From NCBI GenBank assembly GCA_963704905.1, contig CAVPHZ010000001.1:643438-707437 (forward strand): a stretch of DNA of 64,000 nt, read 5' to 3'. Every line of letters begins with the position of its first letter. Positions within the stretch are counted from its first letter, which is position 1. The notes under the pieces were generated by a model that worked only from the letters and a program-made list of their open reading frames with translations, did not search any database and was not told the origin of the DNA. This document shows, piece by piece, positions 1 through 30,407 of the stretch. A program made the position numbers and the translations under genes. The stretch is from Candidatus Chisholmbacteria bacterium (GTDB lineage Bacteria; Patescibacteriota; Microgenomatia; UBA1400; Chisholmbacteraceae).

Positions 1-4
1 CGGT

Positions 5-394
5 ATGAGTAAGTATGTTCGCGATATTAATCTCTATTGGTCATTGGGTCAGTGGTTTGTGATTGTTCCTTTAGTTTCTCTGATTGGTTTTGTAGGATTT
101 GCATGGGGTCAGCTGCTTACTTCTGTTATCCTTATTATCCCAATCCGACGGCTTAAGAGGAGAATACCTCTTTCGCTATCTAAATATATATTACCCTATA
201 TTATCATTTCAATAGCTAGTGGTTTATTGGTCAATGGTTTGCATCGATTGGTTCCTGTGGAGAATATTTATCAGCTTTTTTTCTATGCGTTTATTGGAGG
301 GGTTAGCTATCTTGTGCTTGTTTTCGCTTTTCGAAGGAGAGAGGTTTTTGAGAATGTTTTGAAGGTAAAGACGTTTACATTTGAGAAAGGTTAG
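5..394 (+). CDS. Small 4-TM membrane protein, GtrA-like (polysaccharide synthesis/flippase-associated). Possibly 5' truncated at the window edge.
   Basis: 129 aa with about 4 hydrophobic helices and basic loops; size and topology typical of the GtrA family; sits next to a GT-C-like membrane protein. Call rests on topology only. Confidence 0.4.
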   Translation: MSKYVRDINLYWSLGQWFVIVPLVSLIGFVGFAWGQLLTSVILIIPIRRLKRRIPLSLSKYILPYIIISIASGLLVNGLHRLVPVENIYQLFFYAFIGGVSYLVLVFAFRRREVFENVLKVKTFTFEKG

Positions 395-444
395 ATTGCT
401 GCTAATTTTTCTTTTTCTTCGTCCAAATTATTTACGATAGTGAT

Positions 445-1665
445 TTACTTGGTGTTCGGCTTATTACCTTTAAAAAGCGAATGGAATACAACTGCGAAGG
501 CGATGATATTAATGCTTAGTACTGCAAACTCCCAGAGTGGATTGTAGATAAAGAATGATACGAAGATGAGGAATGCATAGGTTGTTGCGAAAGCTGGAAA
601 GTGATTTTTTCTTCGTAAGGTATCCCACAGCATGAGGAAGACGAAACCTGGAAGATGGTGTCGGAAGAATACCCATTTGCTGAGGATATTCGATGCAAGG
701 AGTATGAGTGTGGTAAGGCCGTAGATCTCTAGTTTATCAGACGTTCCTTTTCTGAGCTTGATGTAGAGTATTGACAAAGTGGTGATGGTTGCTAGCAGTA
801 TCGTATTTGCCAATATTGTTAGTGGTTCTGAGAAAGTGTTTATGAGTAATACTCTTCTGGATATTGCATCGATAAACCACCAGAGGCTCGGACCGCGAAT
901 GATCATTTGCTGAGTGTAGCCAATGATTCCGTACCAAGTTTCTCTTGGATATATCAAGAAAAAGGGAGCTACAAATGCAAGGAAGGTGAGGGATGTTGCT
1001 ATTCCTAGTCTTATCGAATTGTTTAGATTTCGGTTGGCTAACAGCATCCAAATTGGGAGAAAAATAAAGATTGCAGATTGCTTTGCAGCAAACGCAATGC
1101 CAAAGAGTAAACCAGCCAGCCAGTAGCGATGGATATCAAGCGTCTGAATAGCAAGAAGAGAAAAGAATACTACCAGTGTTTCGGGATGACCCATAAAGCC
1201 AGAAGTGAAGAGGTAGAAGCCAGAGAAGAAGAGCAGGATGATTACGGTGTTTATTGTTGAGGTTGATAACGTTGGACGGAATTTTTTGATTATCTTGGTG
1301 ATAAGGAAGATGGTTGCGATATCCACTAGAAATAACGAACTACTGTACACCTGGGTAACGAGTTCTTGTGACCAACCAAGTTTTCCCCCGATGATTACGA
1401 ACGGATAGATGAGTAATAATAATAGTGGAGGACAGCAGTACCCTGCACCGTTTGGTGGCGCTATCGAAATAATGCGTAGGTGTGACCAGGGATCAAATGT
1501 GGGTAGGTAGTGAGAGAGGGCTACTAGCCAGGCTTTGTCTTGATGTTGCCATCCCATAAGGTTTGCGAGTGTGCCGACCATGAAATACAATATTGCTGTT
1601 ACTCCGAAGACCCCTGAGGAATTTGAGTAGTATGTTTTCTTGGTTTTCACTTTTCTATGGTTCAT
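445..1665 (-). CDS. Polytopic membrane protein, GT-C-like glycosyltransferase (DUF2029/GT87-like)
   Basis: 406 aa with more than 10 predicted TM helices and conserved acidic/aromatic loops; located in a glycosyltransferase cluster. No strong named motif recognised. Confidence 0.45.
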   Translation of the reverse strand: MNHRKVKTKKTYYSNSSGVFGVTAILYFMVGTLANLMGWQHQDKAWLVALSHYLPTFDPWSHLRIISIAPPNGAGYCCPPLLLLLIYPFVIIGGKLGWSQELVTQVYSSSLFLVDIATIFLITKIIKKFRPTLSTSTINTVIILLFFSGFYLFTSGFMGHPETLVVFFSLLAIQTLDIHRYWLAGLLFGIAFAAKQSAIFIFLPIWMLLANRNLNNSIRLGIATSLTFLAFVAPFFLIYPRETWYGIIGYTQQMIIRGPSLWWFIDAISRRVLLINTFSEPLTILANTILLATITTLSILYIKLRKGTSDKLEIYGLTTLILLASNILSKWVFFRHHLPGFVFLMLWDTLRRKNHFPAFATTYAFLIFVSFFIYNPLWEFAVLSINIIAFAVVFHSLFKGNKPNTK

Positions 1666-1863
1666 GCTTATGTGTTACCCATATATACCATGCTTTTTTG
1701 TAAACGTGCATTCGACTTTTTCTTCTTTCTTGGCAAGCATGTTTTTGGTAAGTTCATGTTATACAAGTTCGGTATGATATTAATCTCATTAGTCAAGTGA
1801 TTGGAGTACGCAAATGCAGGTTCGTAAGCATTTATTAGATCGAGTAGTAATGGTAGGTCTAAA

Positions 1864-2781
1864 ATGAAATCATCACGAATTCCGACTGTGTCTATTATTA
1901 TGCCTAATTATAATGGTAGAGCGGTAGTTGAAGAGTGCCTGACTTCTCTTAAAGCAATGGCCTATCCAAAGAATAAGGTTGAGACAATCATGGTTGATAA
2001 TCACTCCTCTGATGATTCTGTTGAGTTTGTCAAGACGCGTTTCCCTTGGGTAAAGGTTTTAGCACTAGAACGAGGATATGGATTAGCAGGGGCTCTTAAT
2101 AGAGGCGCACAGATTTCCAAAGCTGATTATTTGTTACTGATTAATAATGACATTGTTGCTGATCGATCAGTATTGAAGTATTTAGTGCAGACTGCTCAGA
2201 TGCAGTCGGATGTTGGAGCGGTAGGGCCTATGGCTTTTACCTACCACGATCGAAGTCTCATCGAGAAAGCTTGGGGGAAGATGGATCTTTCGTCTCTTGA
2301 GATTGAGTCAGTTGGGAGAGGGGAAAAAGATACCGGACAATATGATCAAGTTGAACTCGTCGATGCCTGCATTTTCATTACCGTGTTAGTTCCGAGGGAT
2401 GTGTATATGCGGATTGGGCCGTTGAACGAGCGATTTTTCATTTATTATGAAGACAATGATTTCTTTTTTCGCCTCCGAGCTGCAGGCTTGAAGTGCTATC
2501 TTGCAGCTGGTGCGAAAATTTGGCATATGGGGAGCAAGTTAAGTGGCCCTTCCAGTCCACAGACGATTTATTATCTTTCTCGAAACAAACTTCTCTTTCA
2601 AAGTACTCTGCGAGCGTTTTCAGTTGCAGAACACTTGAGAAACGCTCGGTTTTTTGGTTCGTCTTTGTTGCTCTCAGTATTGCGACAGAAAGAGAAGAAG
2701 GAGCATCTCTCAGTTGCTTTGGGTATCATAGATTATTACAGAGGTAAATTTGGAGAGCGAACACTTCGGTTTACAACATGA
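1864..2781 (+). CDS. Family 2 glycosyltransferase (GT-A fold)
   Basis: N-terminal 'VSIIMPNYNG' then 'VDNHSSDDS' (DxD-type) and 'YYEDNDFFFR'; typical GT2 layout. 4-nt overlap with the next GT2. Confidence 0.8.
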   Translation: MKSSRIPTVSIIMPNYNGRAVVEECLTSLKAMAYPKNKVETIMVDNHSSDDSVEFVKTRFPWVKVLALERGYGLAGALNRGAQISKADYLLLINNDIVADRSVLKYLVQTAQMQSDVGAVGPMAFTYHDRSLIEKAWGKMDLSSLEIESVGRGEKDTGQYDQVELVDACIFITVLVPRDVYMRIGPLNERFFIYYEDNDFFFRLRAAGLKCYLAAGAKIWHMGSKLSGPSSPQTIYYLSRNKLLFQSTLRAFSVAEHLRNARFFGSSLLLSVLRQKEKKEHLSVALGIIDYYRGKFGERTLRFTT

Positions 2782-3617
2782 GGAAAAAACTATCGGTTAT
2801 CATTCCGGTTTACAATGAAGAAAAGTACATTGGTGTGTGTCTCTCCTCGATATGTAAGCAGTCACTTCTCCCTGATGAGGTGATCGTTGTAGATGATGGT
2901 TCTACTGATAGGACTGTGAAGATTCTGTCTGAGTTTGAAACACCAAAGTTTCGGTTTCAAGTGTTTCAACAGACGCATCAGGGATCTGCCGTGGCTAGGA
3001 ATTTAGGAGCCAGACGCTCCTTTGGGGATATTTTGATATTTGTTGATGGAGACATGCGCTTTGATAAGCATTATCTCAAGAAATTAGTTGCACCCATCAT
3101 AAAAAGGAAAGCAAAGGCCACGTTCACCAGAGAAGAGTATGTGGCGGATTCTGCTAATGTTTGGTCTAGGTGCTGGAGTGTTAACAGTTATTTACCTCAA
3201 GACCTTCACATTGATCCGAACATGCCTGACGAGACGACGAATTTCCGGGCGATTACTCGAGATGTGTTTTTTGAAACTCAAGGTTATCTCGATACGGGTT
3301 ATGGTGGGGATGTAACAGTTTTGGAGCAATTGCCTGATATCCGAGCCAAAGCGGCTGAAGGTGCGGTGTGTTATCACTACAATCCTTCGTCTTTGTGGGA
3401 AGTTTTCATATCATCGCGGTGGATGGGGAGGGGTGAGGTTATCAGTGCGCGTTGGCGATCGTTTCTGATTTATTCATTGCCCAACTCGCTCCGGAGGGGC
3501 GTTTGGGAGGCTTTTAGGAGGCGTTTACCCTGGTTTATTCCATTCAAGATCGTGGTGGATTTTGGAGTGTGGATAGGACTTGTTGAGCAGAGATTGGGAA
3601 GAGCGCATTATAAGTGA
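2778..3617 (+). CDS. Family 2 glycosyltransferase
   Basis: 'LSVIIPVYNEEKYI ... VVDDGSTDRT ... FVDGDM' GT2 signature. Confidence 0.8.
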   Translation: MRKKLSVIIPVYNEEKYIGVCLSSICKQSLLPDEVIVVDDGSTDRTVKILSEFETPKFRFQVFQQTHQGSAVARNLGARRSFGDILIFVDGDMRFDKHYLKKLVAPIIKRKAKATFTREEYVADSANVWSRCWSVNSYLPQDLHIDPNMPDETTNFRAITRDVFFETQGYLDTGYGGDVTVLEQLPDIRAKAAEGAVCYHYNPSSLWEVFISSRWMGRGEVISARWRSFLIYSLPNSLRRGVWEAFRRRLPWFIPFKIVVDFGVWIGLVEQRLGRAHYK

Positions 3618-3830: not shown

Positions 3831-4706
3831 ATGCATGGTGGTTTTTTCAAGAAGAAGCTGCTCTCTACTATCTGGGAGAAGCCTAGTTACGCACGGGCTA
3901 GTGAGAAAGAAATTCAGAAACAACTTTCGAGTAATCTGGGTCACTTGAGGTTATTGGAGTATTCGAAGAGAGCATCTCTTATTCTCGATTGCGCTTGCGG
4001 TGATGGTAGGGTTCTTTTCCACCTTTGGAGGAAGGATGCGAGATTTTGTGGAGTTGATCTCTCGAGTCGAGCGATTCAAGCAGCAAGAAAACGCCTTGGA
4101 AGGAAGGTGAATGTATCTTTATTTGTTGGAGATGTGGAACGGGTTGCAGTGAAAGGCGGGCTTTTTGATTTGGTGTATAGTTCTTATGCTTTAGAACATG
4201 TTGATGATCCCAAAATGGCAATATTGGAGATGATTCGATTGTTAGCTCGGGGTGGAACAATGATTATTGTCTGTCCTAATTATGGCTCTCCTTTTCATCC
4301 GTCTGCTTCCAGTCCTCCTCCTCGAATGACACTTTTTAGCAGAGCAATGAGGATATTTTTTAAGAGTCATGGAGCTGTGGTTGTTGAGCCACGAAGCTTG
4401 GGTTGGATGAAAGTTCAGCCGAAAGCGATTGTTGAGGGGAGATGGGAGCAAGATTGGGATACTACTGTAGAGCCGTATGTTCAGACATTGCTTCCTTTTT
4501 TACGTAGGAATGGTGTGGAGATTCTTGAGTATTCGTCTGGACTTGAGCGGAGAAGCGAATCCAGCTGGGATGATCTGCGAGGAGTTTCGCTTCAACAATT
4601 GATTTTGAAGATATTTCGGAAGTGGTTTGAATTTCTTGGAAGAATTGGGATTGTACCGTATCTATATTATGGACCAACTTTGTTTGTGGTTGGGAGAAAG
4701 ACATAG
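3831..4706 (+). CDS. Class I SAM-dependent methyltransferase
   Basis: Motif I 'ILDCACGDGR', motif post-I 'GVDLS', 'LVYSSYALEHV'. Confidence 0.7.
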   Translation: MHGGFFKKKLLSTIWEKPSYARASEKEIQKQLSSNLGHLRLLEYSKRASLILDCACGDGRVLFHLWRKDARFCGVDLSSRAIQAARKRLGRKVNVSLFVGDVERVAVKGGLFDLVYSSYALEHVDDPKMAILEMIRLLARGGTMIIVCPNYGSPFHPSASSPPPRMTLFSRAMRIFFKSHGAVVVEPRSLGWMKVQPKAIVEGRWEQDWDTTVEPYVQTLLPFLRRNGVEILEYSSGLERRSESSWDDLRGVSLQQLILKIFRKWFEFLGRIGIVPYLYYGPTLFVVGRKT

Positions 4707-4711: not shown

Positions 4712-5944
4712 ATGCGTCTGGATCAACGCATGAACCAGGCAGAGCATGAACCAGGCAGACTCTTCCATTTCGGCGGGTTAGGCACGGATGACACGAATGA
4801 TATTTATAACCTTTCAGTCGCGTCAAGAAAAGAATATATGAATGCTACGAATAGCAAAAAGAGACCAAAAATTGCAATTCTTGTGCCAAGATATGGATTA
4901 GTTGAGCGGGGAGTGGAGAATTTTACCTCTGGATTGGCAGGTCATTTAAAGGGGGATTTTGAATTTACTGTTTACTCTCGGGTTAAAACCCATGAAGACA
5001 CGGAGAAGGTATTTGCTGTGCCTGAGTCCAAAGGTTTTCTTCAGAGTATATATCGTACTTTTCCAGCTGCAAAAAAGTTGATGGATAGGTATTATTTGGA
5101 TCCTCAGAGTGTTGAGATGTTGAGTTTTAGTCTCTCTGTTTTACCAAAGCTGTTATTTGGAACGCATGACCTTTTGTTTCCTCAAAATGGAGTATGGGGA
5201 GCGATGGTTTGCAGAATAATACGAGCAATGAAAGGAACGCCTTTTATTTACCGAAGTGCGGGAGGCAAGGAACCGCTGATTGTGCGACAGAAGCCGGATG
5301 TATATGTTGCAACCACCCCTGAGAATATGAAGTTTATTCGAGAATACCCGAGAGATGTGAAGGTGCAATTGATTCCAAACGCTGTGGATCTTGTGCATTT
5401 TTCACCTCGAGTGAAACCGGTTGATTTACAGATTCGGAGACCAATTGTACTTTGTGTTGGGGCACTGATTCCCTCGAAAAGACATGAGTTGGCGATACGA
5501 GCTGTTTCTAAGTTATCAGAGGGTAGTTTGGTAATTCTTGGTGATGGGCCACTGCGGAGGAATCTTGAGAAAGATGGCTTAAAGTTGTTGGGGAAGCAGC
5601 GATTTCTTTTGCGTAGGGTCAAGCATGCGGATATTGCTGGTTATTATGCTGCGGCTGATGTTTTTACATTGCCTTCGCGGGAAGAACCGTTTGGTATTGT
5701 TTACCTTGAGGCGTTAGCGTCGAATCTTCCGGTTGTTGCTCCTGATGATTCAACGCGACGATATATTATTTCTCGGGCTGGGTTTTTGTACCCACCTGGG
5801 GATGATAATTCTTACGTCAAGGCTTTAGGGAAAGCACTTGGGAAGAACTTTGGTTCTTTGCCAAGGAGACAGGCGGAGAAGTTTAGTTGGGATCGGGTTG
5901 GCAAGGAGTATCGGAAGCTTTTTTATGAACTTACTTCTGCGTAG
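4712..5944 (+). CDS. GT4-family (GT-B) glycosyltransferase. Likely true start is the ATG at 4838 (MNATNSKKRPKIAILVP).
   Basis: C-terminal 'EPFGIVYLEALASNLPVVAPDD' retaining-GT4 EX7E-type motif; N-terminal 'KIAILVP' typical GT-B start. Confidence 0.75.
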   Translation: MRLDQRMNQAEHEPGRLFHFGGLGTDDTNDIYNLSVASRKEYMNATNSKKRPKIAILVPRYGLVERGVENFTSGLAGHLKGDFEFTVYSRVKTHEDTEKVFAVPESKGFLQSIYRTFPAAKKLMDRYYLDPQSVEMLSFSLSVLPKLLFGTHDLLFPQNGVWGAMVCRIIRAMKGTPFIYRSAGGKEPLIVRQKPDVYVATTPENMKFIREYPRDVKVQLIPNAVDLVHFSPRVKPVDLQIRRPIVLCVGALIPSKRHELAIRAVSKLSEGSLVILGDGPLRRNLEKDGLKLLGKQRFLLRRVKHADIAGYYAAADVFTLPSREEPFGIVYLEALASNLPVVAPDDSTRRYIISRAGFLYPPGDDNSYVKALGKALGKNFGSLPRRQAEKFSWDRVGKEYRKLFYELTSA

Positions 5945-5964: not shown

Positions 5965-6696
5965 CTATAGTTTGAAGTTATTGATGACGCTGTTTACCTT
6001 AATAACGGCGTCCATGGTTCCGACATCAAAATAGTTTGAGCTCAGCTTCACTGCTTTGAAATTGACCTTTCCCTCTTTTGCTAATACATTGAAACCAACT
6101 CCAAGGAGCCGATCTCCTCTAGTTTTTTGGCTCATTATGTGTTTTTTAAGCTTTTTGAGAGTAGCTACATTTGCCCCCCATATTCCCCAAATCCAATTGC
6201 TGAGCGGGGGGGACTTTTTTACTAACACTCCTCGTACCCGTCCAGCTTGATCAATGCGTACGCTATCATATCTACTTCCGTCGGGCACCTTAAACACCCC
6301 TAAACAGATATCGGCACCATGGAGGAGTTGCCTTTTAAGTCTTACAAAGCTTGCAAGTGGAGAGAAGATTGTATCTGGTAGTCCAAATAAACAGATGTCA
6401 TTGTCGTTGAGATTTGAGATTGGATAGAGGCAAGATTCGGGGAGGGAGGGGGAGTTGTAGAAAACCATGCTGATGTTTGCATTGTAAGTAGCGTATTTTT
6501 TTACGATATCGATTTTCTCCGGATGGATGACGAGTTTAATTTCATCCACCTTGGCGTGTTGCAGCGCGCGTATAGAAAACTCCGAAATTGCATAGTGGCG
6601 ATTCTTGTATGCCACTGGATAGAGCTCTTTTGAAAAAGCAATTGGCTGCAATCTCGAACCTTTTCCAGCCATTGGTAAAATTCCGTAGCATTTCAT
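5965..6696 (-). CDS. Sugar-1-phosphate nucleotidyltransferase (NTP_transferase fold). The ORF extends to 6771, but the start is probably the internal Met at 6696 (MKCYGILPMAGKGSRL).
   Basis: G-x-G-x-R-L pyrophosphorylase motif 'LPMAGKGSRL' right at the proposed N-terminus. Confidence 0.6.
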   Translation of the reverse strand: MKCYGILPMAGKGSRLQPIAFSKELYPVAYKNRHYAISEFSIRALQHAKVDEIKLVIHPEKIDIVKKYATYNANISMVFYNSPSLPESCLYPISNLNDNDICLFGLPDTIFSPLASFVRLKRQLLHGADICLGVFKVPDGSRYDSVRIDQAGRVRGVLVKKSPPLSNWIWGIWGANVATLKKLKKHIMSQKTRGDRLLGVGFNVLAKEGKVNFKAVKLSSNYFDVGTMDAVIKVNSVINNFKL

Positions 6697-6847
6697 CGAT
6701 AAGTTCCCCGTTGTTTGGTGGTTGATGGATATGTGTATCTTAGCAAATTCATCCGCTTGATCACTTGGCATTTGATATTTGACCGATTGTGTTTGGTCAT
6801 AAACCTTTCAGAGATGGTCTTAACAGATTTAGAAGGGTCGATTTCTT

Positions 6848-7183
6848 TTGAAAAAAGTTCCTCATCGGGAAGTTGTTCGCTACTATGCGGTTGCGGATGT
6901 TTTTACGCTTGCATCTAAGGATGGGCTGTTTGGAATTGTGTATCTTGAGTCAATGGCAAGCAATTTACCAGTTGTTGCACCTGATGATGAGAGTGGAAGG
7001 TCCATTTTAGGAAAGGCTGGAGAGTATTTTTCTTCTAGGAGATTTATTGAATATTCTGAGGTGTTGCAAGAGGTTGTTCGAAAGCAATTTGGCCAAAATC
7101 CAAGAAAACAGGCGGAGAAGTATAGTTGGGATGTTGTCGGGAAGCAGTATCGTCAGTTGATTCACATTCTTGTTTCAGCGTAG
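6848..7183 (+). pseudogene. 3' remnant of a GT4 glycosyltransferase (C-terminal ~110 aa only), paralogous to the C-terminus of the 4712..5944 gene
   Basis: 'YYAVADVFTLASKDGLFGIVYLESMASNLPVVAPDDE...RKQAEKYSWDVVGKQYRQL' aligns with 'YYAAADVFTLPSREEPFGIVYLEALASNLPVVAPDDS...RRQAEKFSWDRVGKEYRKL'. Frame opens only at 6833 after a TAG; TTG start; no N-terminal GT-B domain upstream. Confidence 0.6.
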
Positions 7184-7244
7184 AGAACTCCAATTTGTGT
7201 TATTCTAGTTGAGACGTTCTCTCCTAATTGAGGTAATTCTGCCT

Positions 7245-20866: not shown

Positions 20867-21649
20867 TCAAGAATTCGGAATTACTTGAATTGCGTGTTTT
20901 ACCATGAAGCGGAGTTTGGATTTATACCAAATGAGATATTTTTTCCAAGAGGGAAAGGCATCAAAGGATTGGCTTTGGCCATGGTAGAAGATAATTGTTG
21001 GATCGTATACAACATTCCATCCAGCTTTTTTTGCTCTCAGGCAAAGGTCAGCATCTTCGAAATAGATTGGGAAAAACTTTTCATCAAAAAGACCGATTTT
21101 ATCGAGGACTTTTTTACTTATCATCATGGCTCCACCATCAACCCAAAGTGGATTTTTTTCAATGTCTGGTGAGCGTGGGTCATCTTTAACTAGTCCAAGT
21201 AAAAAGTTGAAGTCGTGTCCATGAGAAGCAATTATTATTGGTTTATCTTTGAAATATATTTTTCCTCCAAGAATACCAATGTTTTTTCTGTTTTCCATTT
21301 TACTTACCATTTTCTTGATACTATTGGGTGTTACTATTAAATCTTCATTGCCGACGAAAATGTATTTTCCGTTACTCTTTGTTATCCCTAGATTTACAGC
21401 TTTGGCAAAGCCAAGGTTCTTTTTAGGAGAAATGAAAATAACTTCAGGAAACTTATTTTGAGTTTGTTTGGGTAAGGCATGAGAGTTGTTAAAGATGATA
21501 ATGATTTCAAGCTTTTCTTTTGGATAGTTCAATTTCTTTATTGACTCGTAAAATTCTTTAAAGTCCTTGCTCACTTTCATGATCGGACTGATAAGGGTTA
21601 CTTTTGGGAGATTAGATGAGTTGGTCTTTCCAAGTGGCGGGTGTTTCAT
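20867..21649 (-). CDS. Family 2 glycosyltransferase
   Basis: 'VTLISPIMKVSKDFKEFYESI...IIIIFNNS...FVGNEDLIV' GT-A layout and 'YFEDADLCLR' motif. Confidence 0.7.
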   Translation of the reverse strand: MKHPPLGKTNSSNLPKVTLISPIMKVSKDFKEFYESIKKLNYPKEKLEIIIIFNNSHALPKQTQNKFPEVIFISPKKNLGFAKAVNLGITKSNGKYIFVGNEDLIVTPNSIKKMVSKMENRKNIGILGGKIYFKDKPIIIASHGHDFNFLLGLVKDDPRSPDIEKNPLWVDGGAMMISKKVLDKIGLFDEKFFPIYFEDADLCLRAKKAGWNVVYDPTIIFYHGQSQSFDAFPSWKKYLIWYKSKLRFMVKHAIQVIPNS

Positions 21650-22634: not shown

Positions 22635-22661
22635 ATTACTACTTTTGACTATAGCACAGGT

Positions 22662-23501
22662 TTATTTGTGGCAGATTGCGTGGATGTTTCCACCAAGGAG
22701 GTAGAGTAGGGTAGTGACTAATCCTGATGAAGATAGCCAACCAGAATTTGAAGAATTTGATTTTTTCAATATAGCAGTTGGGCCGAAAGGGAAGACAGTG
22801 AGCGTTGCTTCAACTTTTTTGAATTTGTTTAGAGCGTTTTCCCAAGCGGGAAGGTCAAAGCTGGTTTCGATGATGCCAGCATCGGTCTCTGATTTTCCGA
22901 TTTCTGATATGAAATGAAGGAGGCCGATCCATTTCAATGGTTTTTCCCACCAGCGGAGTTTGGTGGGGCGACGCCAGAGTTTGAGGTTGAATTTTTGCAT
23001 GACCGGTTCCTCGTTAAAGAAAAATACCCCTTTTGGTTTTAGTACTCGATATGCCTCTTCTATGATTGGCTCTGGATCGGGAAAATGATGAAGGGTTTGG
23101 TAGATGAAGACGAGTTCGAACGAGTTGGACTTAAACGGCAGTTTATATGCATCGGCACTGATCGGTTGAGGAATTTTATTCAGTTTTAGGGTAGATTTTA
23201 TTTCTCTGGATTGTTTGAGGCTTTCGTATGAAAGATCGAGCATGATGCCTTGTTCGCCGAATTCTGATGAGAGAAGCATGGCTCGTTGGCCTCGCTCGGC
23301 TCCAATTTCAAGAAATGGTGATAAGTCCCGATCCTGTCGTTGGAGCTCTTGAAAGTCAAGACGAGTTTTGTTGTTTCGATTTCGTAGTTCCTGAACAAGT
23401 TCTACCTTAGTTGGTTCAGCGTCTTCATACCCGCCTTGGTTGAGGTTTTTACGATAGGTGATTTCGGCCTGTTTTTGTTCCGGTGTCTGATATCTGGTCA
23501 T
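22662..23501 (-). CDS. SAM-dependent methyltransferase (type 11-like). The ORF extends to 23594 but overlaps the upstream gene, so the start is placed at Met 23501 (MTRYQ...).
   Basis: 'FLEIGAERGQRAMLL' motif I variant, 'FELVFIYQTLHHF', 'RVLKPKGVFFF'. Confidence 0.55.
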   Translation of the reverse strand: MTRYQTPEQKQAEITYRKNLNQGGYEDAEPTKVELVQELRNRNNKTRLDFQELQRQDRDLSPFLEIGAERGQRAMLLSSEFGEQGIMLDLSYESLKQSREIKSTLKLNKIPQPISADAYKLPFKSNSFELVFIYQTLHHFPDPEPIIEEAYRVLKPKGVFFFNEEPVMQKFNLKLWRRPTKLRWWEKPLKWIGLLHFISEIGKSETDAGIIETSFDLPAWENALNKFKKVEATLTVFPFGPTAILKKSNSSNSGWLSSSGLVTTLLYLLGGNIHAICHK

Positions 23502-24286
23502 TTTCTTCGCGAGATGATGAAATAGGCACTGGGTGGGTTTAACGATTGCGGAAGAAATGGCAGAAACAGACGAAGATTGGTGGGATATGTCCAAAATCCG
23601 TGGAAAATTATTTTAAGATTCGCTCGATCATACATTGTCTTTATTTCTTTGAAATAAAAGGGCATTTCGATAGGCTGCTGCTTGATGTTTTTGAGTTTAG
23701 CTGCTAATTTTCTGAGCTGGCGGGCAAATGGAAATGGAAGCTCACGGTGGATGGTTTGGACTTGCATTGGGGCGATGCGGGCCATTTCGTGGAGGGCTTT
23801 TTGTGGATCAGCGAAATGCTCAAAGCTACCAGCACAGAGAGCAATGTCGAAGTGATCATCGGGGAAAGGGAGATATTCGGCGGCACAGCAGACAAGATGT
23901 TTTGCTCCGTTCTTTTTAGCCTTGAGGAGGGCATTAAAAGAGAAATCTGATCCAAGTGTGGTTGGTGAGAGATGCTCAATCCAGCCTTCTCCGCAAGCAA
24001 TATCCAACGTTTTGTTCCCACGAGCAATTGCAGCGAGTGCTTCGTATGAACCGTCATCGACTTTCAGCCAGTCATCTTCATAGAGTCGGTCGTATCCGTC
24101 CAGGCTGGTTTTTAGAAGTTTGTCTCTGAGTGCTTTTTGTGGAAGGAGGATAGGGATACCCATTTTAATGGGGTAAGATTCTTTGCAATTAGTACAGACG
24201 AGTTTTGAATTGTTCTTTTTGAGTGGCGTGTGGCAGTTGGGACAGACAAGCATGTGTATTGAAGCGTCGTTTTTTTTGGTTACCAT
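23498..24286 (-). CDS. SAM-dependent methyltransferase with N-terminal Trm112-like zinc-ribbon
   Basis: 'CPNCHTPLKK...CTNCKESYPIKMGIPILLP' (CxxC...CxxC) followed by 'LDIACGEGW' motif I and 'FDIALCAGSFEHF'. Confidence 0.6.
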   Translation of the reverse strand: MVTKKNDASIHMLVCPNCHTPLKKNNSKLVCTNCKESYPIKMGIPILLPQKALRDKLLKTSLDGYDRLYEDDWLKVDDGSYEALAAIARGNKTLDIACGEGWIEHLSPTTLGSDFSFNALLKAKKNGAKHLVCCAAEYLPFPDDHFDIALCAGSFEHFADPQKALHEMARIAPMQVQTIHRELPFPFARQLRKLAAKLKNIKQQPIEMPFYFKEIKTMYDRANLKIIFHGFWTYPTNLRLFLPFLPQSLNPPSAYFIISRRK

Positions 24287-24314: not shown

Positions 24315-27122
24315 CTAGTATTCGTTTGACCACCAGTTTCGCATCGGATTTGAGACTCTTTTTTTCAATAGTTTTCTGAAAGGTTCAAGAGGTTTAGTGG
24401 TAAAGCTGAGGGTAATAGTAATGATGATTGTGAGTAGACTCATAGTCGGCAACCCCCAAGTTGTGAGGTTACCTCTAAATCTGAGATCGACTTCTATCGA
24501 ACTTTGCCAAAGGTCTTTTGGAATTGGAATGTACATGAAGCCAAAACTTGCTTTAAGAATTGGAGCTTTGGATCCATTTACCGTTGCCTTCCAGCCTGGA
24601 TGGTAATTTTCTTTAAACATGATACCGGTAGCGTTGGTGGTTCTGATATTGACTGTTGAGGGGTTTGGACGCTCTACGAGGAAATCTCCGGTGGTGATGT
24701 CTGTCTGTGCCACATCTTCCATGATGTTGGCAAGAAGTTCTACCTCTTCAAAGTTGTTGTAACTGATAATGTGGTAGGGCAAGTTGAAGCCCGAGAAGAT
24801 AATTTTACCTTCACCGATAGTACCTTCTGAGAGAATTGGACGGTTGTTTTGCAGAAGCACTGGAGTGACCCATTCTTCAAGCTGTGTTTGGCTAGAAGGG
24901 GCTACGATTTTCCAGGCATCTTGTCCGTAGCGAAGCGGAGCAAATTGGGATTTGTTTATGCCTTGGATTAGCGGTGAGTTCAGCTCTTTGAGCTGCCATT
25001 CTGATTCTTCATCGTACAGCTCAAGCGATTCTATTCCAGGAACTTGCGGTATATTTGTGCCATATTTTTCTACAGCTCCAATATCTACATACACAAGTCC
25101 ACCATTTTCGATGAATGTTTCTATGGTTTGCCACTCGGATCCGGTGAATTGATATAACACCAATGCGTCGACTTGGTTGAGGAGCTGTTGATTTAGATCA
25201 TTTATTGATTCAGGTCCTTTGATGAGGATGAGATTTTTTAAGGCTGGATAAGTAAATGAAAATGCCCGTAACAAGGTGTCGTAGCCAGATCGGTCTGTGA
25301 CGGTGAGGACACGACCTGCATTGGTTGGGGTGATTATTGGGGAAGTGTACTCTCTGCTCAGCTCGGAAAATGTCCAATTCTTGAGTTTTTCATCCTTTGC
25401 AATTAGACCTCTCATCCCAATGATATCGGAGTCGTATCCCACGAGATCTGCACCTACCGATTCTGATGACTCATGGATGTAGCCGATCCCATATGCTTCC
25501 AGAAGTGAGAGACCTCGATTTTTTCTCAGCCTTTCGGGAGTTTGGTCGTCAGGAGTGGGAGTGAGCAGGGACTTTTGGAAGAAAAAGAGCCAGTCTTGAC
25601 CGGATTCTGGAGGAAGGTTGGCGTACCCCCTTATTGAGGGGGTATTTGAATACGCATTCCACCAGATATAAAAATTGGGACGAATGCTTTCAACACGCCA
25701 GTTATGATCATTTACAGGCATCCAATTGGGAATGACTTCTGAGGTTGGAGACTCTTGATATTTTTCAATAATATATTTTTCAAGCCCGGCTGGAATTGTG
25801 GCGGAGATGGGAGTGACTCGAGTAATGTCAAAGCGAAGCGTGTTTGAAACGATTGGTAGCGAAAGCGCGATGAGAATGACAAAGACAGAGCTAGTCATGG
25901 TTGCGATTTTTTCGTCCAAGGATTTAATTCTTCCAAAAGCCGTTGCTGCTAGGGTGAGAATAGATAGACTCAGAGCCCAAAACATTTGTTGAGGGGCAAA
26001 TTCTCCTGAAATGTTGTTGATAAGCTTGAGTTTTGCGAGCATCACGAAGGTTACCAGCCATACGATTATGATCGTTAGACTTTTTAGTTGACTTGGTGTT
26101 GAAGTGCGTTTTTTCCAGATGAGATAGATCAATGGCAATAGGAATGTTGCAACTGGAATAAGCATTGTGAGGCTAAACCAGCGAAGGTCTTCCGGGTAGT
26201 TACCCCAGCAAAGAAGATTGTTACATGGACCAGCAGTTGTGCCTGCGATTTGGCCGTTTATTAATTGAAATGAGACTGGTAGCGAGGCTAGTATGGCAAT
26301 ACCTAAAAACAAGACAATCTGACTAGCCTTTGTTTTGAATGGCTGTTTGTCTGAGAAAAAGAGAAATATGAGTACCGGTATGATAATGGTTATGATGGCA
26401 GAGATTGGATGGAGGAGGAGAGCAGCTGCAGCAAGTAGTGCAGCGGTAGTGAGATAGCCATGCTTTCGACGAAATGAGAATTTACTGATGAGTAGGAGGA
26501 TGATTGGAAGTAGCAGAGCGACACTTGAAATAGGAATTGTTCCCTTGACAACGACGTTGAAGTAGGTAGCAGGAGTGATAAGCAGAATGAAGGTGAATAT
26601 GAGAGCAACGAGAATGCTTCTACTCTTTTCAAAAAAGAGGATGATCGCACTTATTAGATAGAAAAGGATCATCAGCATTGCAGCAAGTTGCAGGCTGGTG
26701 ACAGTGTCGAGAAAATGGGTAAGTGGTGAAATGAGATAGTAGAAGAGTGTGGGGTAGCCACCAATTACTGGCACACCTTCATTCCAGAATGACATCCAGC
26801 CGGTTGGAGGAAATGGTTTTTGTTGGGAGATGAATTTGAACAGTGTTAGGTCGTTGAGGAACAAGCCGCCGAAGACCTGGTTTGCTTCAAGGTAGGGTTT
26901 GGCAATTCTAATGTACCAGATGACAGTGATGAGGATTGCTGAGCATGCCAGAAGTACTAGGTTGAAACCTTCTTTGGCGAGTGATGCGAGTAATTTTTTT
27001 TTAAATTCAGTTTCGGATTGTTGCTCAACTTGTTTTGTAACAGCAAGTTTTGAAACAAAGGTTCTGGTACGTTGTCTTCGATTGAATGATCTTCGCTTCG
27101 TCATACTTTTGTTGTTTTCCAT
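24315..27122 (-). CDS. Giant GT-C-like polytopic membrane protein, third paralog of the 7245/11233 family
   Basis: Acidic first-loop 'FLNDLTLF', 'NFYIWWNAYSNTPSIRGYANLPP', 'VDALVLYQFTGSEWQTIETFIENGGLVYVDIGA', 'FKENYHPGWKATVNGS'. Confidence 0.6.
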   Translation of the reverse strand: MENNKSMTKRRSFNRRQRTRTFVSKLAVTKQVEQQSETEFKKKLLASLAKEGFNLVLLACSAILITVIWYIRIAKPYLEANQVFGGLFLNDLTLFKFISQQKPFPPTGWMSFWNEGVPVIGGYPTLFYYLISPLTHFLDTVTSLQLAAMLMILFYLISAIILFFEKSRSILVALIFTFILLITPATYFNVVVKGTIPISSVALLLPIILLLISKFSFRRKHGYLTTAALLAAAALLLHPISAIITIIIPVLIFLFFSDKQPFKTKASQIVLFLGIAILASLPVSFQLINGQIAGTTAGPCNNLLCWGNYPEDLRWFSLTMLIPVATFLLPLIYLIWKKRTSTPSQLKSLTIIIVWLVTFVMLAKLKLINNISGEFAPQQMFWALSLSILTLAATAFGRIKSLDEKIATMTSSVFVILIALSLPIVSNTLRFDITRVTPISATIPAGLEKYIIEKYQESPTSEVIPNWMPVNDHNWRVESIRPNFYIWWNAYSNTPSIRGYANLPPESGQDWLFFFQKSLLTPTPDDQTPERLRKNRGLSLLEAYGIGYIHESSESVGADLVGYDSDIIGMRGLIAKDEKLKNWTFSELSREYTSPIITPTNAGRVLTVTDRSGYDTLLRAFSFTYPALKNLILIKGPESINDLNQQLLNQVDALVLYQFTGSEWQTIETFIENGGLVYVDIGAVEKYGTNIPQVPGIESLELYDEESEWQLKELNSPLIQGINKSQFAPLRYGQDAWKIVAPSSQTQLEEWVTPVLLQNNRPILSEGTIGEGKIIFSGFNLPYHIISYNNFEEVELLANIMEDVAQTDITTGDFLVERPNPSTVNIRTTNATGIMFKENYHPGWKATVNGSKAPILKASFGFMYIPIPKDLWQSSIEVDLRFRGNLTTWGLPTMSLLTIIITITLSFTTKPLEPFRKLLKKRVSNPMRNWWSNEY

Positions 27123-27907
27123 TTAATGACTAGAAGCAACTTCACAGTGAGAAAAGCAACAGTATGGAGTGGTTGGCGCATTAGCTTTAACTTGTGTTTC
27201 CATAAAGGTGCCAATCGGTGTATGAAATTTGACTGCAGGTTAAATACCCTTGGGTGTTTGTCAGCGTACATTTTGATATGTTGGGTGTAGTACCACTTGC
27301 GACTGATATTTTTTTGCAATCCTACGGGCTCGTGATGAAGGAGATGTTGTTTAGATCTCGTGATCGATGCTTTGTCGTTTTGAAGACGGAGACATAAGTC
27401 CCAGTCTTCACCGGCGATGAGGTTTTCATCGAATCCGTCAAGTTTTTTGAAAACGGTTTTTTTTATGAGACGGGGAGATTCTATGAGTGGATCGCCTTGA
27501 TAGCAGTTGCGCTCCAAGGCTATGGATTTTCCCCAGAAATCATGACCAATTGCTTGCTCTGGAATGATCACTGCATCACTATTTATTTCGGCTAGCTTCT
27601 CAAGTTCATGCAATAGTTTATGCGGGAGTTCCATGTCTGCATCCAAAAACAGGAGATATTTGCCTTTGGCTTTGGCTGCCCCTTGGTTTTTTTGTGTTGA
27701 GCGTTCGGGACCGAGGTTGACTATAGAATATGGAATATTGAATTTTGCATGTTTAATAAGTTTCGTTGCCTCTGAAACTGTTTTGTCAGTTGAGAAGTTA
27801 TCTACGATGATGATTTCTTCGGGGAGCACTGAACTTTTGAGGATACTTTTGAGAAGGCGGGGAAGATTCTGTTGCTCGTTTTTGGTGTTGATGATGATGG
27901 AAATCAT
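27101..27907 (-). CDS. Family 2 glycosyltransferase
   Basis: 'MISIIINTKNEQQNLPRLL...IIVDNFSTDKT...FLDADMELP' GT2 signature. Confidence 0.75.
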   Translation of the reverse strand: MISIIINTKNEQQNLPRLLKSILKSSVLPEEIIIVDNFSTDKTVSEATKLIKHAKFNIPYSIVNLGPERSTQKNQGAAKAKGKYLLFLDADMELPHKLLHELEKLAEINSDAVIIPEQAIGHDFWGKSIALERNCYQGDPLIESPRLIKKTVFKKLDGFDENLIAGEDWDLCLRLQNDKASITRSKQHLLHHEPVGLQKNISRKWYYTQHIKMYADKHPRVFNLQSNFIHRLAPLWKHKLKLMRQPLHTVAFLTVKLLLVIKWKTTKV

Positions 27908-27932: not shown

Positions 27933-29060
27933 TCAGTGATCAGCAGTTTTATTTATTGCATTTAGAAACTCATCCGTGGTTCGGCTCCATGTGAATTGGG
28001 TGGCATAGGTTATGGCATTGTTGCTCAACCTGGCCCGTAATTTTGGATTGTCAATAAGTTTATTCATCAGACTGGCTACTGATTGAGGTTTATTTTGCTT
28101 AGAGAGCAAACCGGTTCGATTATTTTGAATCGAATCCACTATTCCTGTGACTACATAGGCAATTGATGGGGTGCCGAGGCTGGCGGCTTCGATGATGTTT
28201 AATCCCCAACCTTCTTTTACTGAAGTAGAGAGGATTGCCCAAGAGGAGGCGAGCAGTCTGCGTTTGTCTTCCTCGCTCACAAAGCCGTGAATTTGGACGT
28301 TGTTGTTGAGGTTGAGCTGATTGATTTTATCTTGTAGAAAGCGGATGTAGCTAGGCTTTCCTCGGCCGAGTATGTGCAGTTGGGACTGTGGCGTTTTCTG
28401 TTGAACAATGGCGAAGGCTTTGATGGTTTCTTCGATCCGTTTCATGGGGGTGATTCGACCGAGCGAAATGAACGTTGGGCGTTTCGATTTTGTGTGTGTG
28501 CTTTTTCGTGGGAGAGTAATTCCGGGGGTGATGGTGTGAACATTTTTAACTCCTAGTAATTTAAACTCACTAGCTACTGAGGCTGAGATGACGATAAAGT
28601 GGTGGTTTTGAAATTTGGCTATGTAGGTTCTTTCAAGCATTTTACCGATGAGGTTTCCTGGAAAGGGGACCTCGTAATCCCAGATTTTGTCAGCAAACTC
28701 GAGAGGAAAAAGGATCGTTGGTATGATCGAATAGAGAGGGGTGAAAGAGGGAAGGCCGTGAATTTGATCGACGATGATGTCTGGATTCGGTTCATGAGAA
28801 CGGATAATTTTTCGTACTTCAGATAAGAATAGTGGCCAGCGAAGGTAGCTGGTGAAGTTTGTGGGATAAAAATCTGTAGGACGGATAATACTAACACCAT
28901 TGATTGATTCGCGAGCACTCGCATTCGGATATTTACCGCTGACAATGGTAATTTTGTGACCTCGTTTAACCAACCTTTTGGCAATCTCGTGCGTGAGGAT
29001 TTCCGCTCCACCTGAGAGCGGGTTTTTTATGTCTCGCCATGAGGTAACGAGGATGTGCAT
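27933..29060 (-). CDS. GT4-family glycosyltransferase (start at MHILVTS; ORF extends to 29105)
   Basis: 'EGWGLNIIEAASLGTPSIAY' GT4 motif; GT-B N-domain 'ILVTSWRDIKNPLSGGAE'. Confidence 0.7.
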   Translation of the reverse strand: MHILVTSWRDIKNPLSGGAEILTHEIAKRLVKRGHKITIVSGKYPNASARESINGVSIIRPTDFYPTNFTSYLRWPLFLSEVRKIIRSHEPNPDIIVDQIHGLPSFTPLYSIIPTILFPLEFADKIWDYEVPFPGNLIGKMLERTYIAKFQNHHFIVISASVASEFKLLGVKNVHTITPGITLPRKSTHTKSKRPTFISLGRITPMKRIEETIKAFAIVQQKTPQSQLHILGRGKPSYIRFLQDKINQLNLNNNVQIHGFVSEEDKRRLLASSWAILSTSVKEGWGLNIIEAASLGTPSIAYVVTGIVDSIQNNRTGLLSKQNKPQSVASLMNKLIDNPKLRARLSNNAITYATQFTWSRTTDEFLNAINKTADH

Positions 29061-29110
29061 GGTGGGGCGATTGTAACACGGCTTTTTCTCGTTTGTTATA
29101 ATCAAGTCAT

Positions 29111-29476
29111 ATGGGTGAGGAAGAGAGCATAGGGAAACAAGCTTTTAACTTTCGTTGGGCAACTAATAGTCAGAAAGAGAAATTTGCGTATGTGGACGAT
29201 GAAGCCAGGAGTCTTCGTTTGTTTGTAAAACCTATTCGAGGTCCAGGTGGTAGTGGGGAGTTACAGATTGCACTATTTAGGATAAAGGATGGACACGTGA
29301 TTGATGAGCTTGGAAATGTATTTGAAAAGGGTACAGAAGAGGATGTCGCCGAAGCAGTTGATACCTATATGGCTCGGCTTGGCCAAGTAAAGAAACCTGA
29401 GGATATCTTTGAAGACTCCTATGAAGCTACGCGTCTGTCCTTAAGAAAGATGGCAAAACAATTTGCTGATGAATGA
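29111..29476 (+). CDS. Hypothetical acidic protein (121 aa)
   Basis: Single ORF on the opposite strand inside the glyco island; no motif recognised. Confidence 0.35.
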   Translation: MGEEESIGKQAFNFRWATNSQKEKFAYVDDEARSLRLFVKPIRGPGGSGELQIALFRIKDGHVIDELGNVFEKGTEEDVAEAVDTYMARLGQVKKPEDIFEDSYEATRLSLRKMAKQFADE

Positions 29477-29480
29477 AATG

Positions 29481-30407
29481 CTAGCTTTGTTCGGCAGAGA
29501 AGATGATGCCGCTGGTGGGGATTTCTATGCTTGATGGGGTATCCAGTGAAGGTTCTAAAATTCTGCTCTTTTTCTCTTTAGCGGATGGTTTAGGTTTATC
29601 TGGAAATATAAACACCTCGGAAGGTGAATCATCTACATATTTGCCATTGATCACGGGGATTTTCTGTAGTTCGTCTTGCGTTAGTTCCCGATTATAGAAT
29701 TGGAGGACGTTTTTTCTATAGAAAATTGCCAGTGTCTCGGTGAGCATGTTCAAAACAACTCTCCAGTTGATGTGTGACTTTCCTGGTTTCCAGTTCATGT
29801 GGACTGGAGCCTCAAGAATTTTATTGAATCCTAAGTGGCTGGCTACTACCAGAATTTCCAGGTCGCAGGTCCACTTTTTCACTATCAGCCGAGGCATGAC
29901 CGCTTTGAGGACATGACGCTTAAACATTTTCAGACCAACCTGCGTATCGGTAACATTGAGATTGAATATCATCCTGATGAGCTGCTGATATCCCCAAGAA
30001 TACAAGCGCCGACGGGGGCCGTACTCAACTTGGCTTAAACGATGGCGTTTGCTGCCAATGACTATATCGATATCAGCAAAGGTGATGAGGTCAATGTACA
30101 AAGCAATTTGTCTGGGATGAAGCTGGAGATCTGAGTCCATAAAGCAAATAAGATCTCCCTGTGATTGCTGAAACCCATAGCGCAGGGCAAATCCTTTCCC
30201 TTGGTTTTTGGCGTAGATGAAGGTTCTGAGATGCGGGAGGGAGAGGCTATTTAATTGGGTTGTGGTGATGGCATCGGAACCATCATTGACCGCGATGATT
30301 TCGTAGGGAAGTCCAGTGCTTTGCAGTTCTTCATCAACAACAATAATATTCTTATGAATTTTGGGTTCATTATAGACAGGAAGGATCAGTGAAACCTTCG
30401 GTCTCAT
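29481..30407 (-). CDS. Family 2 glycosyltransferase, polyprenol-phosphate sugar synthase-like (Dpm1/GtrB-like)
   Basis: 'VSLILPVYNEP...IIAVNDGSDA...FMDSDLQ' plus basic C-terminal extension as in Dpm1/GtrB-type enzymes. Confidence 0.65.
   Translation of the reverse strand: MRPKVSLILPVYNEPKIHKNIIVVDEELQSTGLPYEIIAVNDGSDAITTTQLNSLSLPHLRTFIYAKNQGKGFALRYGFQQSQGDLICFMDSDLQLHPRQIALYIDLITFADIDIVIGSKRHRLSQVEYGPRRRLYSWGYQQLIRMIFNLNVTDTQVGLKMFKRHVLKAVMPRLIVKKWTCDLEILVVASHLGFNKILEAPVHMNWKPGKSHINWRVVLNMLTETLAIFYRKNVLQFYNRELTQDELQKIPVINGKYVDDSPSEVFIFPDKPKPSAKEKKSRILEPSLDTPSSIEIPTSGIIFSAEQS

Follow-up and report, generated by a model that had tools for sequence, protein, structure and literature searches.

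A block of glycan genes in a Chisholmbacteria genome

We analysed a 64,000-nucleotide stretch of DNA (hereafter the window) from a Candidatus Chisholmbacteria bacterium (NCBI GenBank assembly GCA_963704905.1, contig CAVPHZ010000001.1, positions 643,438 to 707,437), and in particular the gene block at window positions 1-30407, which would encode a pathway for the assembly of a cell-envelope glycan. Domains were assigned with Pfam and NCBIfam over all non-nested window open reading frames (ORFs) of at least 100 amino acids (aa). Of the 25 ORFs in the block, 24 were found to be glycan-related, including a flippase fragment recognized through a relative, which bears out an initial annotation of this DNA as an almost wholly glycan-related gene block. 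The window total is 16 glycosyltransferases, comprising 11 cytoplasmic enzymes and five membrane enzymes of the glycosyltransferase C fold (GT-C), together with part of a flippase gene and four S-adenosylmethionine (SAM) methyltransferases. The cytoplasmic enzymes belong to glycosyltransferase families 2 (GT2) and 4 (GT4). The features of the block, in window positions, are:

1-394 (ORF 5-394), forward strand: C-terminal 130 residues of a Wzx/MOP-family flippase, with no upstream stop
445-1665, reverse strand: GT-C membrane glycosyltransferase, GT87-like (Pfam GT87 27.2 bits, cut-off 25; weak PMT_2)
1864-3617, forward strand: two overlapping GT2 genes, 1864-2781 and 2778-3617 (Glycos_transf_2, E 1e-21 and 1e-35)
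3831-4706, forward strand: class-I SAM methyltransferase (Methyltransf_11/25/31/23)
4712-5944, forward strand: GT4 glycosyltransferase (Glycos_transf_1, E 1.6e-24)
5965-6771, reverse strand: sugar-1-phosphate nucleotidyltransferase (NTP_transferase; weak RmlA/AglF-type matches, all below cut-offs)
6848-7183, forward strand: C-terminal remnant of a GT4, 111 aa, probable pseudogene (51% identical to residues 300-410 of the GT4 at 4712)
7209-11186, forward strand: predicted giant GT-C paralog 1, 1325 aa (PTPS_related 32.7 bits, cut-off 26.4)
11233-14271, forward strand: predicted giant GT-C paralog 2, 1012 aa, the modelled protein (AlphaFold2 model, Foldseek)
14262-16603, reverse strand: two core GT4 genes, 14262-15431 and 15428-16603 (Pfam; 33-61% identity across loci)
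16579-17274, reverse strand: core class-I SAM methyltransferase (Methyltransf_23, E 2e-22; relatives 44-64% identical at the same position)
17292-18785, reverse strand: core GT-C glycosyltransferase, PMT_2-type (PMT_2 34.5 bits, cut-off 26.1)
18775-19902, reverse strand: GT4 glycosyltransferase (Glycos_transf_1, E 1.5e-30)
19939-21649, reverse strand: two GT2 genes, 19939-20826 and 20867-21649 (Pfam)
21612-22634, reverse strand: short-chain dehydrogenase/reductase (SDR) NDP-sugar epimerase/dehydratase (Epimerase, E 3e-56)
22662-24286, reverse strand: two class-I SAM methyltransferases, 22662-23594 (likely start 23501) and 23498-24286 (Pfam)
24315-27122, reverse strand: predicted giant GT-C paralog 3, 935 aa, divergent (full-length identity to paralog 2, 23%)
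27101-27907, reverse strand: GT2, its 3' end sharing 22 nt with the start of giant paralog 3 (Glycos_transf_2, E 1e-21)
27933-29105, reverse strand: GT4 glycosyltransferase (Glycos_transf_1, E 3e-36)
29111-29476, forward strand: hydrophilic ORF, 121 aa (no Pfam or NCBIfam match)
29481-30407, reverse strand: GT2 resembling polyprenyl-phosphate sugar synthases (NCBIfam, below cut-off)

Most of the gene counts in the initial annotation hold. The five GT-C enzymes are those at 445 (GT87), 17292 (PMT_2), 7209, 11233 and 24315, Pfam recovers the SDR protein (21612) and the nucleotidyltransferase (5965), and the four SAM methyltransferases are class-I enzymes at exactly the starts given (3831, 16579, 22662 and 23498). 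Seven GT2 enzymes had been counted, where Pfam gives six (1864, 2778, 19939, 20867, 27101 and 29481). As for the six GT4 enzymes, five are full length (4712, 14262, 15428, 18775 and 27933) and the sixth is the 111-aa remnant. The GtrA-like protein that had been named is not there: no block ORF matches GtrA even at E ≤ 5, and the left-edge ORF encodes the C-terminal end of a Wzx-type flippase, sharing 32% identity with residues 362-482 of the 490-aa flippase of a relative (L027:7775-9247; Polysacc_synt_3, E 1.8e-50).

Several of these genes recur in the related loci described below (L001-L027). The GT2 pair at 1864 and 2778 lies upstream of the giant genes in L002 and L003, the methyltransferase pair at 22662 and 23498 is present in L001 and L002, and the PMT_2-type gene at 17292, which also has weak matches to Agl23 and to mycobacterial mannosyltransferases, was found in most related loci. 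The methyltransferase at 16579 is the best-conserved small gene of the locus. The nucleotidyltransferase at 5965 is lineage-specific, having no counterpart at the same position in L002. The methyltransferase at 23498-24286 carries an N-terminal Trm112p-like zinc ribbon, the nearest NCBIfam model for the SDR protein is dTDP-glucose 4,6-dehydratase (139 bits, under the cut-off of 365), and the best for the GT2 at 29481 are PgfS, ArnC-type and PpgS (40-54 bits against cut-offs of 370-529).

We also observed local remodelling at 5965-7183, where the opposite-strand nucleotidyltransferase gene lies between a full GT4 and the GT4 remnant, which has same-frame stops upstream and directly precedes the first giant gene. 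In a relative at 40% identity, a single GT4 gene directly precedes the giant gene.

Conservation of the locus in Microgenomates

Relatives of the locus were taken from metagenomic contigs carrying orthologs of the 1012-aa giant protein at 70% and 40% identity and from a scan with each GTDB species represented by one genome. The nearest named relatives of the window proteins belong to Candidatus Microgenomates, Chisholmbacteria, Pacebacteria and Woesebacteria. The nearest MnmA on record is 63% identical, so the comparison is made without very close relatives, and we infer that the host lineage is sparsely sampled.

In the 70%-identity relative, 12 genes are collinear with window positions 7209-24286 (identities 47-73%). 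The 40%-identity relatives share about 15 collinear genes (identities 22-58%) in the order GT2-GT2-(methyltransferase)-GT4-giant-giant, followed by convergent GT4-GT4-methyltransferase-GT-C-GT4-GT2-GT2-methyltransferase-methyltransferase. The GTDB-species scan added 22 further loci from Daviesbacteria, Levybacteria, Curtissbacteria, Chisholmbacteria, Gottesmanbacteria and other Patescibacteria. Across these, a tblastn matrix gives a recurring core of two tandem giant paralogs, then convergent GT4-GT4-methyltransferase-(GT4)-PMT_2-like GT-C, which a third giant paralog on the opposite strand often accompanies. In at least six of nine relatives with listed ORFs (L007, L008, L009, L017, L024 and L027), the GT4-GT4 pair takes the form of one ORF, about 780 aa long. 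A census of nine related loci with 130 ORFs besides the giants counted 26 class-I methyltransferases, 23 GT4, 21 GT2, 12 PMT_2, 8 SDR, 5 carbamoyltransferases and 4 Wzx flippases. With 26 methyltransferases among 130 neighbouring ORFs, the heavy methyltransferase load is thus a conserved trait of this type of locus. The initial annotation had proposed comparing related genomes for presence/absence polymorphism; we find no such pattern in the core, whose gene order persists in relatives down to about 30-40% protein identity, and the variation that does exist is confined to the periphery (GT2s, SDR, extra methyltransferases, nucleotidyltransferase and carbamoyltransferases). Nine records carrying a Microgenomates-type locus (L007, L009, L012, L013, L016, L018, L021, L023 and L025) are titled "uncultured Gammaproteobacteria bacterium", and these titles look unreliable.

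In a neighbour-joining tree, the 54 giant proteins compared fall into three old paralog clades, one for each position (first tandem, second tandem and opposite strand). Each clade repeats the same groupings of lineages, with the window placed beside the 70% and 40% relatives and next to two Curtissbacteria. These recurring groupings suggest that the duplications predate the lineages and that the set diverged together, as vertical inheritance predicts. The congruent paralog trees point to a locus inherited as a unit.

A family of giant GT-C proteins

The giant protein of 1325 aa is 34% identical to the 1012-aa paralog and has its C-terminal extracytoplasmic module present twice. An AlphaFold2 model of the 1012-aa protein (pLDDT 81.5, pTM 0.79) starts with a helical membrane domain that ends near residue 460. 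An extracytoplasmic region follows at 460-955, which includes an alpha/beta domain together with a beta-sandwich, and then come a transmembrane helix (959-981) and a final helix. Against solved structures, Foldseek matched the membrane part to STT3, AglB, PglB, AftD, AftA, DPY19 and ArnT (E 2e-8 to 7e-4) and the C-terminal part to the class-I-glutamine-amidotransferase-like proteins STM3548 and lin1909 and to the C-terminal region of GH164. A sequence profile likewise gave a weak STM3548 match (E 0.009), and the IFT52 GIFT domain was not significant (E 0.5). From the model, the giant proteins are predicted to be membrane enzymes of the GT-C fold, with the other two paralogs assigned by homology to the modelled protein (34% and 23% identity).

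A profile search of 1.84 billion cluster representatives (clusters at 50% identity) found 586 clusters at E ≤ 1e-30 and 1094 at E ≤ 1e-3, which makes the giants, judged by sequence profile, a small and restricted family. The Pfam entry PF10131 (PTPS_related, cut-off 26.4 bits) is a GT-C clan family of unknown function (PMC7801869); it scores 32.7 bits with the 1325-aa protein, 24.4 with the 935-aa and 12.7 with the 1012-aa protein, and 15.7-44.6 bits with the relatives. Because the PF10131 model covers both the membrane part and the C-terminal alpha/beta domain, the giant family is best read as a divergent PF10131 branch, or else a sister family. PF10131 and PF20176 (DUF6541) are both uncharacterised GT-C clan families, and it is with PF10131 that the giants share their membrane and alpha/beta architecture; they differ from it in that most giants, the 1012-aa and 935-aa proteins of the window among them, fall short of the threshold and in that they carry motifs and a C-terminal tail of their own. 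YfhO (PF09586, cut-off 28.5 bits) matches only the 935-aa paralog, at 18.1 bits over 48 C-terminal residues. No match to Pfam STT3 was found in the giant proteins, and a profile of their VNIWWN region searched against solved structures returned no oligosaccharyltransferase (OST) at E ≤ 10. A literature search found nothing tying a giant GT-C system to Microgenomates or Patescibacteria.

Conserved motifs of the family begin with G-x-D-x-x-N in the first loop, directly after the first long helix, also in the form LGVDFYN; in the model this loop would be extracytoplasmic. Its aspartate is present in 52 of 54 members, the exceptions being the 935-aa window paralog (leucine) and one member with a gap at that column. 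Other conserved motifs are WGGSLPYF, GHP, HGGWYRxFW, VNIWWN and RGYIDPP. The WW of VNIWWN occurs in 51-52 of 54 members, with the next residue N, P or S and not D, the RGY in 53-54 of 54, and the histidine at position 851 is invariant. After the last membrane helix, the tail WW[EQ][KR]E[DE]E, which is predicted to be cytoplasmic, is found in nearly every member (the window's three and the L001-L027 relatives).

Composition and inheritance of the block

The initial annotation had described the block as AT-rich, at 28-38% GC, and as possibly horizontally mobile. By sliding-window profile and direct counts, GC is 41.7% in the block (1-30407), 44.1% in the comparison flank (30408-45000) and 44.2% in the whole window, and the other 34 kb of the window served as compositional background. 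Within the block, 500-bp windows range from 34 to 46%, and single 60-base lines have a median of 41.7% with about one quarter at 38% or less. Hand counts of sample lines misled here, and the mobility inference that rested on them fails. Per-gene GC in the block (35-45%) overlaps that of mnmA (42.3%), obg (45.4%) and ORF 42823 (38.1%). Third-position GC, a record of mutational history, is 0.415 in block genes versus 0.401 in 16 other ordinary genes of the window (Mann-Whitney p=0.38). Synonymous codon fractions of block and other genes on the forward strand correlate at r=0.93, and tetranucleotide correlation with the local reference is 0.83-0.89 in every 4-kb window of the block, compared with 0.15 in a PKD-domain region further along the window. 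In both GC profile and codon usage, the block is continuous with the mnmA/obg flank and is not an outlier.

Strand asymmetry gives the same picture. An excess of G over C on the forward strand (skew about +0.2) runs uninterrupted over 1-45 kb, independent of gene orientation, and third-position G-C skew is +0.3 to +0.65 in forward-strand genes and -0.23 to -0.59 in reverse-strand genes, both inside and outside the block. It is because of this strong asymmetry that synonymous codon use correlates at only r=0.51 between forward- and reverse-strand genes of the same locus. Had the segment been imported recently, such agreement in skew with its flank would be unexpected. No tRNA, integrase, transposase or flanking direct repeats were found within 1-45 kb, and a repeat search for island borders returned only the GT4 duplication and a stem flanking the 16S gene. 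Pattern scans for promoters and terminators were uninformative, with promoter-like sites below shuffles and terminator-like sites at the expected number.

That the block is an AT-rich, horizontally mobile surface-polysaccharide island, present or absent in the manner of O-antigen or capsule loci, has some points in its favor. Surface-glycan loci are often variable, the periphery of this one differs among lineages (GT2 number, SDR, nucleotidyltransferase and carbamoyltransferases), the GT4 remnant beside the inserted nucleotidyltransferase gene attests to local remodelling, and total GC is slightly lower in block genes than in other genes (0.421 vs 0.435, p=0.044). However, this small gap sits in the first codon position (0.485 vs 0.551), where it reflects amino-acid composition. 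GC in the block is 41.7% and not 28-38%, and third-position GC, synonymous codons, tetranucleotides and strand skew match those of flanking housekeeping genes. The marks of mobility listed above are absent, core gene order is common to five candidate phyla and the paralog trees are congruent. We therefore consider a mobile island very improbable. Rather, the block is likely a chromosomal, vertically inherited cell-envelope glycan assembly locus of the Microgenomates, members of the candidate phyla radiation (CPR)/Patescibacteria, and not a recently acquired island.

Several observations weigh against this view of the locus. The compositional background is the 34 kb of window flank and not genome-wide, and the left boundary lies outside the window: the locus extends past the edge, where the flippase ORF has no upstream stop. 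The neighbour-joining tree carries no support values and does not keep every named taxon together: Daviesbacteria and Curtissbacteria are split, perhaps through loose naming of metagenome-assembled genomes or through old transfers. On the side of function, no initiating phosphoglycosyl transferase of the Bac_transf or MraY/WecA type was found among the scanned window ORFs of at least 100 aa, nor is one among the 25 commonest families in the relatives' loci. No enzyme reaches the curated cut-off of any named NCBIfam equivalog, the matches falling far below. Finally, at residue 87 paralog 3 reads GGLFLND where its orthologs read GGDYFN, with leucine in place of the first-loop aspartate that all of them have, and judging from this substitution it may be an inactive copy or one in which the acidic residue has shifted.

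A proposed pathway

The initial annotation had read the locus as making an O-methylated surface glycan of several sugars, built in part on a lipid carrier, and the 16 glycosyltransferases, the Wzx-type flippase, the five GT-C enzymes and the four methyltransferases are consistent with such a glycan, which is probably methylated. In the cytoplasm, nucleotide sugars serve as donors for GT2 and GT4 enzymes, and it is polyprenyl-diphosphate oligosaccharides that Wzx flippases carry across the membrane. GT-C enzymes work with polyprenyl-phosphate-linked donors outside the membrane (PMC8035078). In the pathway that we propose, the nucleotidyltransferase and the SDR epimerase/dehydratase, whose domains are recognized and whose substrates are predicted, would make activated sugars. 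Going by family membership, the cytoplasmic GT4 and GT2 enzymes would build a lipid-linked oligosaccharide, and one or more of the GT2s would make polyprenyl-phosphate monosaccharides. The conserved context of the four class-I methyltransferases suggests that they methylate sugars. The flippase, represented in the window by part of its gene, would presumably turn the lipid-linked glycan outward, and the PMT_2-like and GT87-like GT-C enzymes would add single sugars from polyprenyl-phosphate donors outside the membrane. Lastly, the three giant PF10131-like paralogs, given their modelled fold, may transfer the glycan to its final acceptor or extend it there, with their extracytoplasmic domains perhaps holding the acceptor or mediating assembly of the paralogs. 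Candidates for this final acceptor are a protein, a lipoglycan and a wall polymer.

The acceptor of the glycan

One possibility is that the locus builds or decorates a membrane-anchored lipoglycan or secondary wall polymer, with cytoplasmic GT4 enzymes making a glycolipid or lipid-linked primer and GT-C enzymes extending and branching it outside from polyprenyl-phosphate sugars. Models for this are mycobacterial lipomannan/lipoarabinomannan and arabinogalactan (PimE of GT87, AftD) and the Gram-positive CsbB/GtcA/YfhO systems (PMC5836110; PMC8035078). The five GT-C enzymes are of three types that include GT87-like and PMT_2-like members, and PMT_2 is the commonest domain among GT-C enzymes of Gram-positive multi-component systems (PMC8035078). 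The adjacent, overlapping GT2/GT-C pair (27101-27907 and 24315-27122) mirrors csbB-yfhO pairs, and for the GT2 at 29481 the nearest matches are polyprenyl-phosphate sugar synthases (PgfS, ArnC and PpgS). The fold matches include AftD (about 1010 aligned columns), a giant GT-C whose extracytoplasmic part has carbohydrate-binding domains, and the 935-aa paralog has its sub-threshold YfhO match. However, that match is far under the cut-off (18.1 vs 28.5 bits), no GtrA-type flippase was found among the ORFs (E ≤ 5), and the C-terminal domains of the giants resemble class-I glutamine amidotransferases and not recognised carbohydrate-binding modules. We lean tentatively towards a non-protein acceptor, as a reading that falls somewhat short of probable.

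Alternatively, the giants may be OSTs that transfer a flipped, methylated oligosaccharide en bloc from its lipid carrier onto surface proteins such as those of the S-layer or pilins. STT3/AglB OSTs take the first 16 places among the Foldseek matches, over 583-728 aligned columns that exceed the membrane domain of about 460 residues, but no YfhO/PF10131-type structure is among the solved matches and this ranking may reflect which large GT-C enzymes have been solved. The near-invariant WW lies about 50 residues past the last membrane helix, presumably about where OSTs carry their WWDYG motif, but the family reads WWN, WWP or WWS and not WWD, and there is no sequence-level match to a solved OST, even with the WW-region profile at E ≤ 10, and none to Pfam STT3. 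That the flippase is of the Wzx and not the GtrA type suggests an oligosaccharide as the flipped substrate, the list of components parallels the archaeal Agl cluster, and there are weak NCBIfam matches to Agl23, AglF, AglJ, AglG and Agl16, all below cut-offs. No candidate acceptor protein was identified. On balance, a protein acceptor seems rather unlikely. Less likely still, in our view, is the more specific scheme in which the three giants form a hetero-oligomeric extracytoplasmic machine, joined by their amidotransferase-like domains and with the WWEKEDE tail coupled to the GT4-GT4/methyltransferase enzymes, that performs OST-like en bloc protein glycosylation. If true, such a machine would be an unrecognised bacterial protein-glycosylation system in ultra-small CPR bacteria, evolutionarily separate from PglB and PglL.

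Comparison with known systems

Gram-positive multi-component systems (CsbB/GtcA/YfhO, GtlA/GtlB and GacI-L; PMC5836110, PMC8035078) resemble the window locus in placing a GT-A-fold GT2 beside a multi-spanning GT-C and in having a flippase, a PMT_2-type GT-C and a large GT-C with extra extracytoplasmic domains. However, the window locus has five GT-C and 11 cytoplasmic glycosyltransferases where those systems have a three-gene module, its flippase is of the Wzx type (a partial gene), its giants are PF10131-like and not YfhO (PF09586), and it has four methyltransferases.

Among archaeal Agl clusters, that of Haloferax volcanii comprises the AglB OST, the GT2s AglJ, AglG, AglI, AglE and AglD, the methyltransferase AglP, the flippase-like AglR, the Dol-P-Man GT-C AglS and the nucleotidyltransferase AglF (PMC3871713). 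The window has a comparable nucleotidyltransferase (AglF-like), several GT2 and GT4 enzymes, a SAM methyltransferase (AglP-like), a Wzx-like flippase (AglR-like), a polyprenyl-phosphate-sugar GT-C (AglS-like) and a large GT-C whose model is nearest STT3/AglB. Yet the host is bacterial, the giants have neither STT3/AglB sequence membership nor WWDYG and number three paralogs rather than one OST, and every Agl-type match is below its curated cut-off.

The mycobacterial GT-C enzymes (AftD, AftA, EmbA-C and PimE of GT87) likewise bring several GT-C families, with a GT87-like member, to one envelope glycan, and include a giant GT-C with large extracytoplasmic domains and a C-terminal anchor, AftD being among the fold matches. 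The window giants differ in having no Arabinose_trans or AftD sequence match and in carrying amidotransferase-like domains instead of carbohydrate-binding modules, and the locus differs in being methyltransferase-rich and encoding a Wzx flippase. With Wzx/Wzy-dependent O-antigen and capsule loci, the block shares clustered glycosyltransferases, sugar-nucleotide genes, a Wzx flippase and lineage-variable accessory genes. Unlike those loci, the window has no Wzy, Wzz, WaaL ligase or initiating phosphoglycosyl transferase that we could find (no Wzy/O-antigen-ligase type and no Bac_transf/MraY type among the scanned non-nested ORFs of at least 100 aa), and its core is kept across candidate phyla, is not strain-variable and shows no compositional anomaly.

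Neighbouring features of the window

Four ATP-grasp genes directly follow the glycan block, in a cluster assigned by Pfam:

30477-36998: ATP-grasp cluster with 7TM_transglut, ATPgrasp_ST (C-terminal protease-like region), ATP-grasp_3, RimK-like, a 185-aa ORF and ATP-grasp_4

This cluster may be a functional extension of the glycan locus that adds amino acids or peptides to the surface product. It was not seen within ±10 kb of the giant genes of relatives, a reach that the 16-kb spacing in the window exceeds.

Further along, the window carries bacterial 16S, 23S and 5S genes that are unlinked (41102-42595 and 55440-60611). The 16S gene is isolated, lying some 13 kb upstream of tRNA-Ile, tRNA-Ala, 23S and 5S, with obg, two GC-rich ORFs and a PKD-domain gene in between, and it is flanked by a 27-nt inverted repeat (89% complementary) that is probably a processing stem. 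The two GC-rich ORFs (50-52%, in 45541-47567) have no family match. The PKD-domain gene (49322-53041, reverse strand, 1239 aa, 56.7% GC) is the true compositional outlier of the window (tetranucleotide r=0.15). Its tandem repeats are almost perfect, with units of 270-276 nt (98-99% identical) and of 96 nt (3.8 copies, 99%), and their near-identity suggests recent expansion in a putative surface protein. In the 1.75 kb at 47567-49322, which has no ORF above 82 aa, we observed a candidate type III hammerhead ribozyme (48750-48804, reverse strand; Rfam RF00008 35.6 bits, gathering threshold 48.5, E 9e-5 over 9.9 kb) with the CUGANGA and GAAA core and three intact stems. The 2.4 kb upstream of tRNA-Ile (53041-55440) have no ORF above 89 aa and no Rfam match at E ≤ 0.1.

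Significance

CPR bacteria have tiny genomes that lack many basic biosynthetic pathways, and their lifestyle is thought to depend on contact with the surface of a host. The 772,908-bp contig examined here devotes at least 30 kb (about 4%) to one glycan pathway. Because the pathway core is kept across several Microgenomates candidate phyla, these data suggest that its product is a central, lineage-defining envelope component and not a strain-variable coat. Clustered glycan synthesis with GT-C steps is a kind of system already known. In the literature that we searched, we found no description of the giant GT-C family, of the conserved arrangement of its three paralogs or of the core rich in methyltransferases that is shared across Microgenomates. 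The giant family, which has no studied member, and the consistent methyltransferase load are concrete targets for learning what covers Microgenomates cells.

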